Notes under the pieces: generated by a model
Seen by the model: only the letters and a program-made list of their open reading frames with translations
The model's database searches: none
Told to the model about the DNA's origin: nothing
Assembly: GCA_018060545.1 (NCBI GenBank)
Contig: JAGOVW010000002.1
Coordinates: 141 to 64,140 of the forward strand
DNA length: 64,000 bases
Direction: 5' to 3'
Source of the DNA: Minisyncoccota bacterium
GTDB taxonomy: Bacteria; Patescibacteriota; Minisyncoccia; Phycocordibacterales; UBA2100
Position numbers and translations under genes: made by a program
Shown here: piece by piece, positions 5,306-60,840 of the stretch
Layout: every line of letters starts with the position of its first letter
How positions within the stretch are numbered: the stretch's first letter is position 1

Positions 5306-5554
5306 CTAGATGGTAAATGCCGCGGCGACTCGCTCTGCCAAGAGCGAGTCGCCTTCGTTTAGGGCCGTACCATCGTGGTGGTAGATGCGGATGAGCACCT
5401 TGTTGTAGTGATGAATAGTCACATCGGGGTGGTGGTTCATGTCTTCAGCAATAGGCAGTATACGATTCACGAATGCTACAGCATCGGTAAAATCTTTGCA
5501 TATAAATTCGCGCTCGAGTGCGCCATTGGTTTCGGTGAAGTGCTGGGTGGGCAT
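5306..5554 (-). CDS. Pterin-4a-carbinolamine dehydratase (PCD/DCoH)
   Basis: EDMNHHPDVTIHHYNKVLIRIYHHDG matches the PCD signature. Start moved to MPTQHF to exclude the N-terminal extension, which runs into the tRNA-derived repeats. Confidence 0.7.
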   Translation of the reverse strand: MPTQHFTETNGALEREFICKDFTDAVAFVNRILPIAEDMNHHPDVTIHHYNKVLIRIYHHDGTALNEGDSLLAERVAAAFTI

Positions 5555-5582
5555 GAGGAGAGTGTAGCAGTTGGGAAAGGTC

Positions 5583-6235
5583 CGATACAGGAATTTCTCC
5601 CACAGAAAAAAATCGCCGTCGCTCACCTTCGAATCCTGTATCGCGCTACGGAAATATAATCGCTCAAAGCTTCGCTTCGAGCTCATTATTTCTGTGCGCG
5701 ATACAGGAATTTCTCCGACAGAATCTGCTCGACGTCTCTCGCAGATTTCGCCGGCCGCCTCACGCCTTCCCGCATGCTTGCGGGTCCCGAGGCGTTCGCT
5801 TTCGAATCCTGTATCGCTTACAAAATGATAATCGCCTGAAGCTTACACTTCAGGCTCGATGAGAATTTGGCGATACAGGAATTTCTCCCACAAAGTTTTC
5901 TTGCCGTCGCAGAGAAAACTTCGCGGGCCGCTTCGCAGCTCCCCGTGTGCTCACGGGGCCCCGCTGCTCACCTTCGAATCCTGTATCGCGCTACGGAAAT
6001 ATAATCGCTCAAAGCTTCGCTTCGAGCTCATTATTTCTGTGCGCGATACGGCTTCGTCCCAGAATCACGGGCTTTTGCTGCTGCCCATGGCAGCGCAAAA
6101 GGCCTCGTGTTCTTGGACGGCGCCTCGGATGGTTTGCTCGTGGTGCTCGCAAACCATATCCTGCGGCGCTTCGAATCCTGACGCACAGTGCGCCGGCACT
6201 GTGCTTTATCGCGCACTTGTCGCTTTGCTCCTCTG
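5583..6235. repeat. Array of palindromic repeat elements whose arms are copies of the tRNA-Val 3' end (T-arm/acceptor), in both orientations
   Basis: Sense-orientation fragments cttcgaatcctgtatcgcgc at about 5627-5646, 5802-5817, 5972-5991 and 6160-6170. Inverted fragments gcgcgatacagg(aatttctcc) at about 5583-5602, 5696-5716, 5871-5890 and 6041-6051. An 89-bp unit, 5612-5700, is repeated exactly at 5957-6045. Confidence 0.75.
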
Positions 6236-6308
6236 TGCGCGATACAGGATTCGAACCTGTGACCCTCCCCACGTCAAGGGGATGCTCTACCAACTGAGCT
6301 AACCGCGC
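6236..6308 (-). tRNA. tRNA-Val (anticodon GAC)
   Basis: Cloverleaf folded by hand: acceptor gcgcggt/atcgcgc, D-arm gctcagttggtagagc, anticodon loop ttGACgt, T-arm caggttcgaatcctg. 73 nt, CCA not encoded. Confidence 0.8.
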
Positions 6309-16721: not shown

Positions 16722-16738
16722 ACTGTGATTGAACTTTG

Positions 16739-16825
16739 CGGAGAGGGAGGGATTCGAACCCTCGAGAATCTTTCGACTCTGCCGGTTTTCGAAACCGGTG
16801 CTTTCGACCACTCAGCCACCTCTCC
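16739..16825 (-). tRNA. tRNA-Ser (anticodon CGA), class II long variable arm
   Basis: ggagaggtggctgagtggtcgaaagcaccggtttCGAaaaccggcagagtcgaaagattctcgagggttcgaatccctccctctccg. Anticodon loop ttCGAaa, long variable arm. Confidence 0.8.
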
Positions 16826-16924
16826 GTGGACCTACATATTACTCGAAATCTTGGAGTTTGCAGGTGTTGGCGTATCAATCACTAATTCGTCCATCTGCTT
16901 GGTTTCTCGCAGGGACTCATGGAG

Positions 16925-16941
16925 CACTCAGCCACCTCTCC
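16925..16941. repeat. 17-bp direct copy of the tRNA-Ser 5' end (cactcagccacctctcc)
   Basis: Identical to 16809-16825. Lies about 100 bp upstream of the tRNA in tRNA orientation. Confidence 0.6.
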
Positions 16942-17099: not shown

Positions 17100-17283
17100 C
17101 AAAATTAAGTAGGGCAAAGCGAAGCTTTGGGCGACTATACATTTTGTAAGGTCGACCAGGAATTGAAGGCCGGAGGGGCGGGACCCATCAGCAGATGGGA
17201 CGCCGAGGCAGGGTCGTGGAATTTTAAGATGCGACGGCATCTTAGAGTATCCCTGACCAATTCTCGCTAGAGTCACAAATCGA
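17100..17283 (+). ncRNA. Candidate structured RNA or processing cassette between tRNA-Glu and a terminator; identity unknown
   Basis: No ORF. Internal hairpins (cccatcagcagatggg; taagatgcgacggcatctta). Bounded by tagggtcacaaaat (tRNA-Glu 3' end plus trailer) and a degenerate copy tagagtcacaaatc at about 17267-17283. Confidence 0.2.
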
Positions 17284-17313
17284 CAAAAGGAAGTGGACTG
17301 CTCCACTTCCTTT
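17284..17313 (+). terminator. Intrinsic terminator hairpin (aaaaggaagtggactgctccacttcctttt)
   Basis: 11-bp stem flanked by A- and T-runs. Bidirectional. Confidence 0.5.
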
Positions 17314-17631
17314 TGCGTTTTGTGAAGACGGAGCCATGTTTCGTTAGCAAACGAAACGGGCGAGTCCGGCGTAGATTTTGCTAGGAGCGCAGCGAGTTAG
17401 AAAATCAAATGCAGAGCTGCTGGAAAATTCACGTTTGACGAAACGTGAATTATTGTGGCCCACGTGGATCAGTACACGCAGTGATCAACATTCGTGCATA
17501 GACTTCGATTCTAATTATGCCCTGTCCCCTTATGGCCTGAATTAGCAAAGAAATGACACATACTCTCACTTTGTGTGGGCATAGCGAATCAAATCTTCAT
17601 GAGAAGGAAGCTTGATTCCAAGCAGACTAGG

Positions 17632-19152: not shown

Positions 19153-19415
19153 ACGTGCCGTCATAACATCATTTATTAGTGAATATGTCCAGGAGTGTCC
19201 AAAGCTTCTCAAAATAGCGATTCAGTATCCGCATCGTGCCGCCCCCTGATCCGATAATCCCGGTGGCTACCGGGTGCCCAAAACTTGCGAATTCCTGTGC
19301 ATTTCTGACCGGCCTTTGCTAAGGTATGTTTCGTGAATGACTCCGTAGTTACACCAATGATTCTTGTCTCAGGCAATGTTTTCTCCGATATGAATTTTCA
19401 ACTCCTTGAGTTTCA

Positions 19416-19441
19416 AATCCCTCCCTCTCCGCAGAGTCGAA
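19416..19441 (+). repeat. Displaced, inverted copy of the tRNA-Ser 3' end (aatccctccctctcc) plus variable-arm fragment (gcagagtcgaa), followed by a hairpin
   Basis: 15 nt identical to the tRNA-Ser T-arm/acceptor 3' strand, in the opposite orientation to the intact gene 2.6 kb away. It is followed by cctctccgcag...ctgcggagagg, an 11-bp stem at about 19421-19470, immediately upstream of the HEPN-like gene. Confidence 0.55.
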
Positions 19442-19484
19442 CGCAGTAAAATACTGCGGAGAGGAGCAATAGTGCGGGGCACCG

Positions 19485-20750
19485 TTGCGAGAGGGATATG
19501 AAAGCCGGAGCGGGCCACAGCCGAGCACGACTGGGAGCGAGGCACGGTGTGCGGCGAGAATTACAACGGCGATGGGGAGCGCTCAACCAAAGCGAGCTTA
19601 TTACTTAACTTTATCGCCCATTGACTTCATAATAGGCGGCATGCCAGGTCAAGAACAACGTACGAGTGGGTCGCAGCAGGTGGTGGATAACCGGATGAGG
19701 TTTATTCGCCTGCTCGAAAGCGATCAGCCGCCGGAATATCGGGCTGAATATGAGTTTGCTTCAGAGGCTCGAATTACTGGCCAACTCAACTATTCAAACG
19801 ATGACCTGATCCTCCGGCTTCTCACCATGGAGCCGAATCGGGATGGCCTCTTGAAGTACACCCTTTCTCTTGCCGCACCTGCGGAGTATCGCTTACCCGC
19901 ATATCAATCTAGTAAAGATGGCTACTACTTTGAGGGCGGAGGCTCCGAAGAAATATTGTCTTTAGTTTCCTTACATTTGAGGTGTCGTTCTTTTCCTATT
20001 TCCTATGTCTTTCGAGATCTCAATGGTCCTCCGTTAACGAAGTTTGAACACGACTTTAACTACATAAAACCGGACAAGGGTGCGGATAAATATCTATTTG
20101 ATACATCAAATAGAAACTTCGTAACTCTCAGCGACTTTTTTGATTTGGTAAAGAGATTACCGGGAACCTTTCATCATCGCTTTGCAAATGCTGTCAGACT
20201 TTACGCTCTAGCCCTGCGAGAGGTGGGAGTGAATGACCAACAAGCATATATACATTTGGTCTCTGCGATAGAAATACTTTCAAAACATCAAGTCCTTCCT
20301 GAGGCGCGTGATCCTTTACAAGGTGTTGTAGATCAACTTAAGAGTGTTCTTGAACAAGGAACCCCGGAAGCAAAAGGAGACCTTGGTAATCTCCTTGAAC
20401 AAAGAAAAACGATGCTAAAGTTCATCGCTTTTATACAAGAGCATTCCGACGGAAAGTTCACTGATAGACCTGTGGAGGGTGCTATGGAGCATAAGATCTA
20501 CAAAGATAATCTTCCCGACGCGCTAAAAAAGATTTATAAGGCTCGGTCCAAGTATCTACATGAAGGCAGTTCGATGTACTTGAGCGTGCCTCGTGTCACT
20601 GTGGCAGATTGTGACTACGATTCTTCAATGGGGCAGACTATCGACAATAGGCAATTTGACCCTGAAGACAAACTCCCAAATCTAGTGTTTTTCGAGAAGC
20701 TTGTCCGGGAATGCCTCTTGAGTTACCTGAACACTCATCAGAGTACGTGA
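19485..20750 (+). CDS. Hypothetical protein with a C-terminal HEPN-like Rx4H motif (Abi-like putative RNase)
   Basis: The ORF track begins at a TTG. The true start is probably an internal ATG (MPGQEQ at about 19641 or MRFIRLL at about 19695). The C-terminal region ...LKFIAFIQEHSDGKF...KKIYKARSKYLHEGSS contains R-S-K-Y-L-H (Rx4H). The gene is AT-richer than its surroundings. Confidence 0.45.
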   Translation: MREGYESRSGPQPSTTGSEARCAARITTAMGSAQPKRAYYLTLSPIDFIIGGMPGQEQRTSGSQQVVDNRMRFIRLLESDQPPEYRAEYEFASEARITGQLNYSNDDLILRLLTMEPNRDGLLKYTLSLAAPAEYRLPAYQSSKDGYYFEGGGSEEILSLVSLHLRCRSFPISYVFRDLNGPPLTKFEHDFNYIKPDKGADKYLFDTSNRNFVTLSDFFDLVKRLPGTFHHRFANAVRLYALALREVGVNDQQAYIHLVSAIEILSKHQVLPEARDPLQGVVDQLKSVLEQGTPEAKGDLGNLLEQRKTMLKFIAFIQEHSDGKFTDRPVEGAMEHKIYKDNLPDALKKIYKARSKYLHEGSSMYLSVPRVTVADCDYDSSMGQTIDNRQFDPEDKLPNLVFFEKLVRECLLSYLNTHQST

Positions 20751-59292: not shown

Positions 59293-59322
59293 TGAATTGA
59301 GGAGGGTTATCGAAAGAGCCGA

Positions 59323-59551
59323 GAGCGAATGCTCCCGGCTCCGTCGTTTTGTGGGCGTTGACTTGGGGTCAAGTTGCTAACATTTTTGTTGCTCATCGCA
59401 CAAAAAAGTAAGCACTTCCTCCCCTAGCTCACTCGTTTTCTCCCTCGCATAGCTCGGGATTCATTCGAGTTCCGCTTTTCAAGTCTCCCTCTGCACCTAC
59501 AAAAACGACAGTCGCCGAGAGCTTACGCTCCCGGCTCCTTCGTTTTGTGGG
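59323..59551. repeat. About 40-bp direct repeats bracketing about 185 bp downstream of tRNA-Leu(TAG); the repeat covers the last tRNA nucleotides plus trailer, and an inverted tRNA 3' fragment lies inside
   Basis: gagccgagagcgaatgctcccggctccgtcgttttgtgggcg (about 59323-59364) matches gtcgccgagagcttacgctcccggctccttcgttttgtgggca (about 59508-59551). ttcaagtctccctctgcacc at about 59471-59490 is an inverted copy of the tRNA-Leu T-arm/acceptor. Confidence 0.7.
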
Positions 59552-59629
59552 CAGAGGGAGACTTGAACTCCCATGCCTTGCGGCGCCGCGTCCTAAGCGC
59601 GGTGCGTCTACCAATTTCGCCATCTGCCC
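59548..59629 (-). tRNA. tRNA-Leu (anticodon TAG), long variable arm
   Basis: gggcagatggcgaaattggtagacgcaccgcgctTAGgacgcggcgccgcaaggcatgggagttcaagtctccctctgccca. Confidence 0.8.
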
Positions 59630-59659: not shown

Positions 59660-60060
59660 TTTGTCCGCCTGGGGTCATGCATTGAGCGAAAGTATGCTGG
59701 CCCGGTAAGGTTTGCCGCGTTGCGGGCCGGGCAATCCCTGCCGGAGTTGAGCCTGCCACCGCAGGTCGCTGTTTGTTGGACAGCTTTGCTGTCCGCCCGG
59801 TAGGAGTCTCTCCCACAAAATATCGCTGCAGCGATATTTAGCGTGCCGCCGTTTTCACCCCACGTTACTACGTGTGGGCCTGAAAACGCTTTCGAGTCCT
59901 ACGCGCAACATGCCCCCAGCATGTAGCTCGAGGGCACTCGCTGTGCTCGTGTCCGCCCGGTAAGGTATGTTGCTCCGCAAACCAGGCATACCTTGCCGGA
60001 AAAGTACCTGCCACCGCAGGTGCTGTGTATTCGGACAGCTTTGCTGTCCGCCCGGTAGGA
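59660..60060. repeat. Two units of about 110-145 bp downstream of tRNA-Lys, each ending in an identical 28-bp copy of the tRNA-Lys 3' end plus trailer hairpin (ggacagctttgctgtccgcccggtagga)
   Basis: The 28-mer occurs at about 59777-59804 and about 60033-60060 (the latter overlaps the real tRNA 3' end). Both units also share gcctgccaccgcaggt and gtccgcccggtaagg. Confidence 0.7.
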
Positions 60061-60119: not shown

Positions 60120-60221
60120 ATTGTTGGTGCGCACCCTAGGTTTGTACCTAGACCCTCGAAAACTGAATCCCGATGGATGTCGAATATTCTACCGCAAAAA
60201 TAGGAATACGGAAGGGTCTAA

Positions 60222-60243
60222 TCTGTGCCGGGAGTGGGACTCG
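60222..60243. repeat. 22-bp direct copy of the tRNA-Leu(TAA) 3' end plus trailer (tctgtgccgggagtgggactcg), about 175 bp downstream of the gene
   Basis: Identical to 60396-60417. Confidence 0.7.
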
Positions 60244-60399
60244 GTCAGGAATAATCTGATCGCCGTCGCAACCAGATTTTCACGACCCTGGCTCGCGGCC
60301 GCGCGTGCTCGCGCGGCATCGCTGTGCCTTTCGAGTCACACCCGCACCGTGCGCAGGCACGGTGCTTCGTAGCAGGCCTACTTTGTAAGTCTGTATCTG

Positions 60400-60480
60400 T
60401 GCCGGGAGTGGGACTCGAACCCACACGACTTTCGTCCGGGGATTTTAAGTCCCCTATGTCTACCATTCCATCATTCCGGC
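60400..60480 (-). tRNA. tRNA-Leu (anticodon TAA), long variable arm
   Basis: gccggaatgatggaatggtagacataggggactTAAaatccccggacgaaagtcgtgtgggttcgagtcccactcccggca. Confidence 0.75.
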
Positions 60481-60572: not shown

Positions 60573-60644
60573 GGCCTGGTGGTGAAGTGGTAACACCGGG
60601 GACTGCAAATCCTCTACGCGCGGGTTCGATTCCCGCCCAGGCCT
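60573..60644 (+). tRNA. tRNA-Cys (anticodon GCA)
   Basis: ggcctggtggtgaagtggtaacaccggggactGCAaatcctctacgcgcgggttcgattcccgcccaggcct. Confidence 0.8.
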
Positions 60645-60798
60645 CAGACTGGAGAGCAACGAGACTGCTCTCGTTGCGTCGGGAATCGAAGCCCGGAGCC
60701 ATGTGTGAGTTTGCGAAGCAAGTCGAACACCCTGCCCGACCGGCAGGCGGGGGCGAGGGTCGGTTCGAAGAAAAGTGCGGCAGCACTTTTACTGAGAA

Positions 60799-60840
60799 GA
60801 TTCCCGCCCAGGCCTCAGACTGGAGAGCAACGAGACTGCT
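60799..60840. repeat. 42-bp direct copy of the tRNA-Cys 3' end plus trailer (gattcccgcccaggcctcagactggagagcaacgagactgct), 171 bp downstream
   Basis: Identical to 60628-60669. Confidence 0.7.

Follow-up and report, generated by a model that had tools for sequence, protein, structure and literature searches.

The window, i.e., the whole 64,000-nucleotide stretch of DNA analysed here, contains a tRNA-Val(GAC) gene (ARAGORN; Rfam tRNA, 68.3 bits) and a gene for pterin-4a-carbinolamine dehydratase (Pfam), and the gap between the two is packed with copies of the tRNA 3' end. What is this array, and by what process might it have formed? The window matches the Logan run SRR11088468 exactly. The explanation we favor, and consider probable, is that it consists of four head-to-tail units of a single family of duplicative elements that target tRNA 3' ends, mobile and apparently undescribed.

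A preliminary description of this DNA had reported repeats built from the tRNA-Val 3' end in both orientations. These repeats are real: a 13-mer of the tRNA-Val end, with up to 2 mismatches allowed, occurs 9 times in the window, compared with 1.6 expected, and none of 100 shuffles reached 9. Because the tRNA-Val gene is on the minus strand, however, the plus-strand copies that had been called sense are inverted relative to the gene, and those called inverse are the direct repeats. An 89-bp repeat, said to be exact and placed at 5612-5700 and 5957-6045, does exist, but it spans 5616-5704 and 5961-6049, about 4 nt away, and includes 2 mismatches; only 84 nt are exact (5621-5704 = 5966-6049). The palindromic units of about 85 bp were also correctly perceived, that at 5627-5716 having a folding energy of -44.9 kcal/mol (z = -8.5), but the element is something other than this 85-89-nt palindrome, which marks the joint of consecutive units and is made up of a direct tRNA-end copy, a terminator-like hairpin and an inverted copy. 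Tandem Repeats Finder detected no regular array. That the array is made of non-coding repeats originating from the 3' end of tRNA-Val was a correct conclusion.

On the strand of the tRNA, the array consists of four head-to-tail units, E1 to E4 (Table 1). A unit opens with a terminator-like hairpin, which all Val units have, continues with the 3' part of tRNA-Val in inverted orientation, and ends in a two-hairpin core; behind it comes a direct copy of the tRNA 3' part, beginning in the T-loop. E2 and E3 are intact, E4 is internally deleted, and E1 is divergent. We compared the units with R1, a covariance model made from canonical copies. E2 and E3, both outside the training set, match it at 5870-5987 (32.9 bits, E = 6e-8) and 5698-5815 (31.9 bits, E = 1.3e-7), respectively. 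As single sequences, both fold into the same three-way junction, with energies of -66.7 kcal/mol for E2 (z = -7.9) and -65 kcal/mol for E3 (z = -5.9); they are 75% identical, and compensatory changes separate their hairpins. E4 has lost the first hairpin of the core and shares an identical 84-nt block with E2. The score of E1 is not significant (6.4 bits), and its layout is that of a split inverted repeat, as in canonical family members.

Table 1. Features of the tRNA-Val array and related elements in the window.
Feature	Positions	Strand	Remarks
Pterin-4a-carbinolamine dehydratase gene	5306-5556	-	
tRNA-Val(GAC) gene	6235-6308	-	
TTCGAATCCTGTATCGCGC	5628-5646	+	exact
TTCGAATCCTGTATCGCGC	5801-5817	+	2 mismatches
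TTCGAATCCTGTATCGCGC	5973-5991	+	exact
TTCGAATCCTGTATCGCGC	6169-6180 and 6204-6216	+	split
GCGCGATACAGGA	5583-5592	+	partial
GCGCGATACAGGA	5696-5708	+	
GCGCGATACAGGA	5868-5880	+	
GCGCGATACAGGA	6041-6049	+	truncated
GCGCGATACAGGA	6237-6249	+	the tRNA-Val gene itself
X1, first direct copy	6232-6255	-	tRNA-Val T-loop-to-3'-end segment plus 4 nt
E1	6050-6231	-	divergent; read from the sequence; also in strain L002
E1, parts		-	spacer; inverted acceptor part 6204-6216; hairpin hpX 6184-6203; inverted T-arm part 6169-6183
E1, two long hairpins	6127-6161 and 6056-6118	-	
Direct copy between E1 and E2, GTATCGCGCACAGA	6036-6049	-	5'-truncated
E2	5881-6035	-	terminator-like hairpin 5992-6035; inverted copy 5972-5991; two-hairpin core 5881-5971
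Direct copy TCCTGTATCGCC	5869-5880	-	closes E2 and opens E3
E3	5709-5868	-	terminator-like hairpin 5818-5868; inverted copy 5800-5817; core 5709-5799
Direct copy TCCTGTATCGCGCACAGA	5691-5708	-	tRNA 3' end plus 4 nt; identical to 6232-6249
E4	5593-5690	-	internal deletion; terminator-like hairpin 5647-5690; inverted copy 5627-5646; truncated core 5593-5626
Final direct copy TCCTGTATCGGAC	5580-5592	-	degenerate; 24 nt upstream of the dehydratase ATG
Element after tRNA-Glu	17101-17280	+	canonical; core 17153-17272
Second core after tRNA-Glu	17310-17397		truncated
Element after tRNA-Leu(TAA)	60221-60398	-	canonical; core 60229-60344; 23-nt direct repeats 60221-60243 and 60395-60417
Element after tRNA-Cys	60646-60840	+	R1 match 60676-60809 (18.2 bits, E = 2e-3); exact 42-nt direct repeats 60628-60669 and 60799-60840
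Element after tRNA-Leu(TAG)	59318-59546	-	R1 match, 20.1 bits; 157-nt insert 59357-59513 between 39-nt repeats 59318-59356 and 59514-59552

The inverted copy has two alternative partners, namely the upstream and the downstream direct copy. Pairing with the former yields the palindrome noted initially. Pairing with the latter produces a closed three-way junction, and covariation of its helices is seen in more than 120 copies; the conserved, covarying unit comprises the inverted copy, the two-hairpin core and the next direct copy. When 130 R1 hits were aligned, in an alignment itself fitted to the model, 92.7% of the cells were paired, compared with 66.8% upon shuffling; double changes were seen in 33 of 35 pairs, and the covariation score was 0.579, compared with 0.16 when shuffled and 0.05-0.09 when the partners were slid, part of the covariation of helix I being due to differences among the tRNAs. 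Among the variable core pairs, G:T outnumbers A:C by 78 to 21, which points to the tRNA-sense strand as the one that folds; this G:U excess is the one observation behind the proposed RNA form. Across distant organisms, conservation is very strong in both the structure and the unpaired nucleotides, and the closing helix with its discriminator base resembles an acceptor/T minihelix.

This fold corresponds to none of the RNAs with which we compared it. Rfam searches of the window at the gathering score returned tRNAs only, and searches up to E 10 in the Val array and up to E 1 in six canonical loci gave nothing relevant; known RNA families (self-cleaving ribozymes, group I and II introns, tmRNA, bacterial motifs) were ruled out, without an Rfam match. 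The motif GGUCGUG...CCUGACC is not a hammerhead, whose junction strand lengths, assessed by hand, do not fit, nor a K-turn of the box C/D-like type, as there is Watson-Crick covariation where sheared G-A pairs would be needed. An omega-RNA or TnpB-guide reading was discarded as well, in that a guide identical to the tRNA end would be directed against the very locus that the element occupies.

The Val array is not an isolated case. Further copies were sought beyond it, and a related element was found at all seven tRNAs of the window, each of which is followed by additional copies of its own 3' end. R1 also detects a Ser remnant; its matches in the window are all on the tRNA-sense strand, and away from the tRNAs none falls below E of about 0.2. 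The core pattern matched at least 120 metagenome contigs, and a scan of genome contigs found one genome, of a Parcubacteria, with the same layout after tRNA-Gly. In 85 of the 121 loci examined, i.e., the 120 metagenome loci listed plus that of the Parcubacteria, a same-strand tRNA is found just upstream, and the sequence 3' of CCTGAC repeats this very tRNA from C56 on; 19 amino-acid identities are represented. One family copy is located behind a tmRNA gene. Among the matches listed, most loci feature an inverted copy terminating at the T-loop; it comprises the 3' strands of the acceptor and the T-stem, along with the T-loop as far as T54. The direct copy starts inside the T-loop and ends at the tRNA end or slightly beyond, and the direct repeats vary in length from 18 to more than 50 nt; long, perfect inverted copies are kept even where the direct copy has decayed. 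The orientation is always that of the tRNA. The core is present at only 94 of the 185 tRNAs in the loci examined, and remnants without a tRNA body exist.

The Val units belong to this family. E2 and E3 are on the same strand as the tRNA, just 3' of it, and have significant R1 scores; in the Val array, as in the family, the core has an inverted tRNA 3' copy before it and, after it, a direct copy whose start lies in the T-loop. We regard the family, with reasonable though not full confidence, as one of small (about 170-190 nt), protein-less elements, located directly 3' of tRNA and tmRNA genes and on the strand of the tRNA. A phage or plasmid origin was rejected, as there were no matches in viral contigs or in the phage and plasmid collections. 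A literature search, the conserved sequence itself included, found no published description, and the family seems undescribed so far.

To identify associated proteins, all ORFs within 3 kb of the 120 listed loci were clustered. The clusters are housekeeping genes, along with an HTH protein at 9 loci and an IS200-like Y1 transposase at 3, neither of which has a homologue in the window. No transposase, integrase or reverse transcriptase is enriched beside the elements or present in the window; there is no integrase near any of the seven window tRNAs, no recombinase enrichment within 3 kb of the listed loci, no recombinase among the ORFs flanking the Val array (Pfam), and no autonomous insertion sequence sharing the ends of the element in the window or the loci examined.

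The family behaves like a mobile, duplicative element, and tRNAs of all kinds are occupied. In one metagenome, a core of about 100 nt, 100% identical, is found both at tRNA-Ser and at tRNA-Pro, and the direct and inverted flanks of each copy match its own tRNA. The hairpins neighboring these two cores are less similar (17 of 22 positions), and the identity could reflect gene conversion between pre-existing elements instead of a fresh insertion. More generally, nearest-neighbor cores reside at tRNAs for different amino acids in 63 cases, and for the same amino acid in 19. In strain L127, whose flanks are 99.3-99.7% identical, the tRNA-Leu(TAG) site is empty, and differs by exactly the element and one repeat; the 39-nt repeats of the occupied site differ from each other at 5 positions, and the empty site could also be a secondary deletion between them. 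Lastly, the near-identical strain L002 has two Val units only, and tandem and truncated copies occur at other loci as well.

How might such an element move? We propose that the element passes through a single-stranded stage of tRNA sense, probably as RNA, in which its inverted copy would act as an internal guide. This guide would base-pair with the tRNA gene, at the almost universal T-loop and at the 3' part, and the pairing would set the 3' end of the element beside position 56, which is the observed joint; this 3' end (...CCUGAC) would sit in a helix stacked on the guide helix. Because insertion would generate a second tRNA 3' part, the tRNA gene would stay intact, and it would gain the terminator of the element. 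Arrays may grow by re-insertion into a tRNA-end copy or by unequal recombination between direct copies, and units may be lost through the latter kind of exchange. The catalyst would be encoded outside the element; with no transposase, integrase or reverse transcriptase enriched, the insertion chemistry is entirely inferred. The observations that stand against this scheme include the terminator-like hairpin upstream of the core, which argues against strong co-transcription with the tRNA, and the variable length of the direct repeats, which is unlike any known transposase. More tentatively still, the family may represent an undescribed class of protein-less, self-guided mobile elements, of single-stranded RNA or DNA, that recognize the universal T-loop and 3' end of tRNA or tmRNA by guide pairing, insert beside position 56 through ribozyme-like reverse splicing/ligation or enzyme-assisted strand transfer, duplicate the tRNA 3' end, and re-tailor the guide to each tRNA.

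Several known systems share individual traits of this scheme. In group I and group II introns, too, an internal guide pairs with the sequence flanking the insertion and helical stacking places the 3' end at the joint, but the family has no intron core domains, Rfam match or reverse transcriptase, and it duplicates the host sequence where introns interrupt it. Target choice by base pairing inside the element is established for IS608. As in the CTX-phage attP and the integron attC, the inverted and direct copies could fold one strand into a hairpin imitating a double-stranded target; the layout of hybrid site, loop, inverted arm and hybrid site also resembles that of an integrated CTX prophage. 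Recombination at such folded sites depends on XerCD or IntI acting on the folded strand, and a link of the family to these enzymes or to TnpA would be hypothetical. Compared with CTX, attC and IS200/IS605, the pairing is long in our family (10-20 nt), as are the direct repeats, and there is no phage or cassette cargo. If the elements are indeed mobile, the T-loop, the most conserved sequence in the cell, is targeted by base pairing and not by a dedicated site-specific protein, and a compact, reprogrammable targeting module becomes testable.

A different possibility is that the element is a tRNA-linked non-coding RNA that benefits the host, whose closing helix mimics the acceptor/T-arm of the upstream tRNA; tRNA-processing enzymes would excise it, or it would have a role in the termination, 3' processing or regulation of this tRNA. 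The strong conservation of structure and unpaired bases in distant organisms speaks for this interpretation, as do the tRNA-matched orientation, which is without exception, the similarity of the closing helix and discriminator base to an acceptor/T minihelix, and the terminator-like hairpin that each unit supplies; in addition, some copies seem to be retained at one tRNA type in related contigs. Yet a host function does not account well for tandem arrays, an internally deleted unit, truncated copies and remnants lacking a tRNA body, nor for the vacancy of about half of the tRNAs in element-bearing contigs; presence and copy number vary between near-identical strains, and the terminator-like hairpin separates the tRNA from the core. 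We consider a host RNA unlikely. There is a resemblance to tRNA-like structures (the tRNA-like domain of tmRNA, viral TLS, mascRNA), in that the acceptor and T-stem strands of a real tRNA are reproduced by the closing helix, which extends to the discriminator position, but there is no T-loop hairpin or elbow, two hairpins replacing the 'T-loop', and whereas those structures are fixed mimics, the family copies the sequence of the neighboring tRNA. Were the host interpretation correct, the element would be an unrecognized, widespread partner of tRNA genes in bacteria of the candidate-phyla-radiation type.

It is rather improbable that the same family has spread with no dedicated machinery, through template switching of a polymerase or reverse transcriptase by way of T-loop microhomology and hairpin fold-back, with quasi-palindrome correction keeping the inverted copy matched. 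Both junctions of the core do fall inside T-loop sequence common to nearly all tRNAs, and the inverted part at tRNA-Leu(TAG) and tRNA-Cys extends the hairpin stem as a fold-back copy of the flank and the tRNA end. Variable direct-repeat lengths, perfect long inverted copies that outlast the decayed direct ones, and the lack of an associated protein among the ORFs within 3 kb of the listed loci also speak for it. Template switching, however, leaves the covarying three-way junction and the invariant unpaired bases unexplained, and canonical direct repeats stop at the tRNA end, whereas simple fold-back predicts that they extend to the hairpin. Simple hairpin fold-back was accordingly rejected as the general origin of the direct repeats; it accounts for tRNA-Cys and tRNA-Leu(TAG), whereas the canonical loci do not conform to it.

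Integrases classically land in tRNA and tmRNA genes, and direct repeats of the tRNA 3' part with a joint in the T-loop are the classic signature of integrases that target tRNAs. One of the two origins proposed in the preliminary description was serial integration scars, which would be remnants of att-flanked islands, or integrase-less cis-mobilisable elements, placed one after another at the tRNA-Val 3' end by a tyrosine integrase, each with a tRNA-end copy of its own. The idea was right insofar as the array has the look of a serially accumulated small mobile element. The direct repeats and their T-loop joint, the tandem array at one tRNA, and the precise presence/absence difference that the repeats bracket all fit, and tRNA-targeting integrative and cis-mobilisable elements likewise leave the tRNA intact, use tmRNA genes, accrete in tandem and are lost precisely between repeats. 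That these are decayed att scars of integrase-driven islands is nonetheless very improbable. There is no associated integrase, either near the seven window tRNAs or enriched at the listed loci; each unit measures only about 170 nt and is homologous to the others as well as to one family found behind all kinds of tRNA, of 19 identities; and the inverted copy and covarying structured core are foreign to att-site architecture. Moreover, integrative elements bring along an att block that is specific for one tRNA, and chimeric tRNAs would result from such an element-borne site; here the same core has target-matching tRNA ends, i.e., the repeats come from the target, as for Ser and Pro. Integrase landing sites are, in other words, held by a gene-less 170-nt element with a strongly covarying fold and tailor-made tRNA copies.

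The other origin proposed was that of MITE-like elements whose terminal inverted repeats equal the tRNA T-arm/acceptor; a DDE or IS200-type transposase encoded elsewhere would have to move them. Like MITEs, the units are small non-coding repeats with palindromes, inverted T-loop sequence (GGATTCGAA ... CGAATCC) stands on either side of the core, and the IS200-like Y1 transposase occurs near 3 of the 120 listed loci. A classical MITE is however highly improbable: there is no fixed short target duplication, and there are no terminal inverted repeats at both ends of a unit, the supposed ones being internal and varying with the host tRNA; copies are found only behind tRNA and tmRNA genes, in a single orientation; and no Y1 transposase homologue (window) or related full-length insertion sequence (window and loci) was seen. 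With REP/BIME/REPIN sequences and MITEs, the family does share short non-coding palindromes, alternating orientation in arrays, terminator-like hairpins and strain-variable copy number. It differs from them in its strict location at tRNA/tmRNA 3' ends on one strand, in arms re-tailored to each tRNA, and in that the conserved part is a three-way junction and not a palindrome; no RAYT or parent insertion sequence was found in the window or the loci examined. A RAYT-mobilized REP/REPIN was rejected on the grounds of the restriction to tRNA/tmRNA genes and of the Y1 transposase, which has no homologue in the window and is near only 3 of the 120 listed loci. A CRISPR array was also rejected: the 'spacers' are homologous to each other and to the family, and no cas genes were seen in the window or the loci.

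Collapse or expansion of repeats in a short-read assembly is extremely improbable, even though E2 and E4 have the 84-nt exact block in common, the related contigs L001 and L128-L130 end at these repeats, and E3 and E4 are absent from L002, since E1 and E2 are identical in L002, an independent NCBI assembly that supports the tRNA-proximal half of the array, the same layout, tandem copies included, recurs in more than 120 unrelated assemblies, and E3 is a diverged paralogue with compensatory changes and not a duplicated read path.

On the practical side, such elements fragment assemblies, yield false ORFs and can pass for split or duplicated tRNA genes, and a covariance model for them would improve the annotation of metagenome-assembled genomes. 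We also considered an archaeal origin, and plus-strand tRNA genes that would be split or contain an intron; these were rejected because the T-stem 5' strand is missing beside the T-loop copies, neither ARAGORN nor Rfam detects a further tRNA, and the neighboring genes look bacterial. The two ORFs called across the repeats (5571-5828 and 5859-6302) match nothing in Pfam, and one of them crosses the tRNA gene in antisense; thus, they are most likely artifacts, as had been suspected.

Between tRNA-Val(GAC) and the start of the dehydratase gene listed in the table, the DNA is densely filled with tRNA 3'-end copies of either orientation, as the preliminary description of a 660-bp palindromic array at 5570-6240 had held. 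A 13-mer from the tRNA end occurs 9 times in the window with at most two mismatches, against 1.6 expected, and none of 100 shuffles reaches 9. Because the tRNA gene lies on the minus strand, fragments labeled 'sense' on the plus strand are the inverted copies; the copies stand, with their orientation reversed. The repeat reported as exact over 89 bp at 5612-5700 and 5957-6045 also exists, at 5616-5704 and 5961-6049, with two mismatches and 84 nt exact. The two ORFs called across the array are indeed most likely artefacts: neither matches a Pfam family, and one of them crosses the tRNA in antisense. The array comprises four units, E1 to E4, numbered from the tRNA outward. It is real for E1 and E2; L002, a contig from a near-identical strain, carries the same tRNA-Val, E1 and E2, and in place of E3 and E4, which are seen in the window assembly alone, has unrelated sequence that includes a terminator. 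In one sense, the array is ordinary, i.e., repeat DNA with artefact ORFs; in another it is unusual, since it clusters tandem units of an element that is structured, widespread, associated with tRNA and tmRNA genes and apparently undescribed. The mechanically called ORF of the dehydratase (5306-5686, minus strand) extends 130 nt into the repeats, and the start called in L002 corresponds to the window ATG at 5554-5556, giving 83 aa.

Features of the window, with scores of R1 (a covariance model of the element core) for matches outside its training set of 36 canonical copies; E-values are rough according to the tool
Feature	Position	Strand	R1 bits	E	Remarks
tRNA-Val(GAC)	6235-6308	minus
E1	6050-6231	minus		below significance	divergent; extra hairpin splits inverted copy
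E2	5881-6035	minus	32.9	6e-8	terminator-like hairpin, inverted copy, 91-nt core
E3	5709-5868	minus	31.9	1.3e-7	terminator-like hairpin, inverted copy, 91-nt core
E4	5593-5690	minus			84-nt exact block in common with E2; first core hairpin lost
Pterin-4a-carbinolamine dehydratase gene	5306-5556	minus			Pfam
Region listed with displaced tRNA-Ser copies	16738-16825 and 16922-16941	minus
Truncated copy 3' of Glu element	17310-17397	plus	26.4	6.5e-6	second core, without second hairpin
tRNA-Ser remnant	19412-19602	plus	29	1e-6	degenerate element behind a tRNA-Ser 3'-end copy
Leu(TAG) element			20.1	5.8e-4
Cys element			18.2	2.2e-3
Lys element				below significance
Inserts at tRNA-Lys	59951-60046 and 59700-59791	minus			two copies, ~95 nt

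Read in the direction of the tRNA, the four units run head-to-tail. In E2 and E3, a hairpin with a T-rich tail is followed by the tRNA 3' part in inverted copy and then by a core of two hairpins; such terminator-like sites number 5, against 1.0 expected. The inverted copy in both units extends exactly as far as the T-loop (GCGCGATACAGGATTCGAA), and direct copies of TCCTGTATCGC(GCACAGA) flank each Val unit. The 85-89-nt palindrome that had been taken for the unit consists of a direct copy, a terminator hairpin and an inverted copy, with a folding energy of -44.9 kcal/mol (z = -8.5). The inverted copy has an alternative partner, the next direct copy; when these two pair, they enclose both core hairpins in a three-way junction (-66.7 and -65 kcal/mol for E2 and E3; z = -7.9 and -5.9). 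E2 shares 75% identity with E3, and the hairpin differences between them are compensatory.

This layout is not special to tRNA-Val. A search for further copies, as had been advised, found it at other tRNAs in the 64-kb window and in metagenome contigs. All seven window tRNAs have additional copies of their own 3' end close by: tRNA-Cys has 42-nt exact direct repeats with a spacing of 171 nt, together with an inverted piece of the T-arm; the repeats at tRNA-Leu(TAA) are 23 nt long and lie 174 nt apart; tRNA-Glu has a complete, older copy of the element; and tRNA-Lys and tRNA-Leu(TAG) have variants of it. The shared motifs are absent elsewhere in the 64 kb.

Outside the window, the hairpin motif common to the Val and Glu elements matched one species genome, a Parcubacteria MAG, where the same layout lies 3' of tRNA-Gly(TCC). 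The core pattern CAGGGTCGTG ... CCTGACCRANTC matched at least 120 metagenome contigs, many from groundwater, landfill and sediment samples. Among 121 loci (the 120 metagenome loci listed and the Parcubacteria locus), 85 have a same-strand tRNA just upstream of the core, covering 19 amino-acid identities; most loci lacking a tRNA call are truncated where the contig stops, and the repeat there is still tRNA-end-like. The bases 3' of CCTGAC are those of the upstream tRNA from T-loop position C56 on, and the direct repeat usually ends 0-7 nt from the tRNA end. The inverted copy is usually the T-loop plus the 3' strand of the T-stem (10-12 nt); in some loci it takes in the entire 3' part, perfect over 17-21 nt. 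One copy follows a tmRNA gene identified by ARAGORN (L107 51-433; core 484-594, 51 nt downstream), and tmRNA-like 3' ends (…TTCAATTCCC…CTCCAC) precede elements in L027 (1500-2150) and L049 (3256-3700); in L027, the whole unit is in exact tandem duplicate. The pattern was found in none of the viral contigs, phage genomes or plasmids searched. We file the family under a known kind, the small non-autonomous elements that lie at the 3' ends of tRNAs. A full-text literature search, which included the conserved sequence and covered the literature incompletely, found no description of it, so a prior one is possible; Rfam has no matching family. In L015 (1050-1460), two tandem cores lie 3' of tRNA-Arg with the T-loop inverted copy nearly absent, only 'CAC' of the tRNA end after CCTGACC, and the guide helix largely missing.

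Alignments of 73 and 36 copies give a core under strong conservation, ...GGGAATCGAA-AGRC-GGA-GC(hairpin, loop AGCA)GC-GAG-YC-AG-GGTCGTG(hairpin)CCTGAC/C..., with covariation apparent by eye. Across 100 loci, R1 found 130 copies, up to 6 per contig, with several tandem pairs; its window matches outside training are all on the tRNA-sense strand. In the 130-copy alignment, which is model-fitted and so somewhat inflates these figures, 92.7% of cells are paired (66.8% in shuffled alignments), both sides change in 33 of 35 pairs, and the covariation score is 0.579, as compared with 0.16 in shuffles (0 of 500 reach it) and 0.05-0.09 with slid partners. Even the invariant-looking GGUCG:UGACC helix has compensatory changes, in copies outside the selection by the search pattern. 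Because G:T exceeds A:C in the variable core pairs (78 vs 21, one G:T pair being nearly invariant), the pairing points to the tRNA-sense strand as the one that folds, as RNA or as single-stranded DNA.

Several observations speak for movement or duplication of the element. Near-identical strains differ in whether they have these elements and in how many. The flanks of L127, from another near-identical strain, are 99.3-99.7% identical to the window, and tRNA-Leu(TAG), the terminator hairpin and the downstream flank are all there, with the element absent; the window has exactly 196 nt more, i.e., a 157-nt element and one further copy of a 39-nt repeat. Because the repeat copies differ at 5 positions, the empty site may have arisen by deletion between them and not be the ancestral state. 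In metagenome Ga0210057, a core of ~100 nt is 100% identical at tRNA-Pro(TGG) (L040 442-558) and tRNA-Ser(GCT) (L049 11787-11903), while the spacers and the copies, both direct and inverted, are different, each fitting its own tRNA; nearest-neighbor cores lie at tRNAs for different amino acids in 63 cases vs 19. Judged from the identical core and tRNA-matched flanks, the tRNA-derived parts are supplied by the target tRNA and not carried along by the element. This origin speaks against an att site borne by the element, from which chimeric tRNAs would result. Gene conversion between existing elements could also yield the identical cores and is possible, since the neighboring hairpin is only 17/22 identical. 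Tandem, truncated and tRNA-less remnant copies exist. In element-bearing contigs, the core lies downstream of only 94 of 185 tRNAs, and therefore is not a standard part of tRNA genes. At canonical loci, the sequence 3' of the first tRNA-end copy is unrelated to that 3' of the second, which often has its own terminator behind it; thus, the element supplies a new terminator to the tRNA, and the old 3' end and terminator are displaced downstream. Independent short-read assemblies, made from the same strain or close ones, break at elements (L001 ends in tRNA-Val, L128-L130 at the tRNA-Cys element), and hence the elements fragment assemblies of these genomes.

In the mechanism that we propose, the inverted copy would act within the element as a guide to the near-universal T-loop and 3' part, the helix with ...CCUGAC at its end would stack on the guide helix and offer the element 3' end to position 56, and insertion would be accompanied by duplication of the tRNA 3' part. 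The element encodes no catalyst. The chemistry would most plausibly come from a single-strand enzyme acting in trans or from a host recombinase, with the pairing as guide. Within 3 kb of 120 loci, neither recombinases nor reverse transcriptases are enriched among the ORFs, which are limited to housekeeping genes plus an HTH protein at 9 loci and an IS200-like transposase at 3; the window has no copy of these last two. Gene content, with type IV secretion pilin genes, and the setting in which the family occurs tentatively suggest a bacterium of the candidate-phyla-radiation type. That these are a new class of self-guided element is a tentative idea, and judged less likely than not. The main rival to the mobile-element reading is a host function, i.e., a tRNA-linked structured RNA, which we retain because the fold is so well conserved. 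As a second choice for the chemistry, a polymerase or reverse transcriptase would switch templates at T-loop microhomology with hairpin fold-back; this agrees with the tRNA-Cys and tRNA-Leu(TAG) junctions, but not with the canonical repeat ends. Ribozyme-type reverse-splicing would come third. Among known systems, those nearest to the family are integrase elements that target tRNAs, with their tandem derivatives lacking an integrase; REP/BIME/MITE repeats; folded single-strand att sites (CTX phage, integron attC) and guide pairing of the IS608 type; intron internal guide sequences; and tRNA-like structures. Wherever a defining feature of these systems could be checked, there was one that the family lacks.

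A protein family of ~270 aa that matches HTH_23 weakly and has a motif of the GLGLYIGEG type occurs near elements (L015 5808-6620, L003 654-1289, L039, L079, L091), and directly upstream of tRNA-Gly in the Parcubacteria MAG; the window has no homologue. The truncated second core comes directly after the full element at tRNA-Glu and a small hairpin that resembles a terminator, so arrays are not confined to tRNA-Val. The tRNA-Ser remnant is 2.6 kb from tRNA-Ser(CGA) and on the opposite strand, a tRNA-Ser 5'-end copy lies ~100 nt upstream of that gene, and GC content falls to 44-48% across 16-22 kb; the displaced copies and the GC drop suggest an inversion or island between tRNA-end copies. The two inserts at tRNA-Lys, a second type interleaved with the main element, are 76% identical, each with a hairpin and an acceptor-end copy at its end (TACCGGGC...), and may be another tRNA-end-targeting family.
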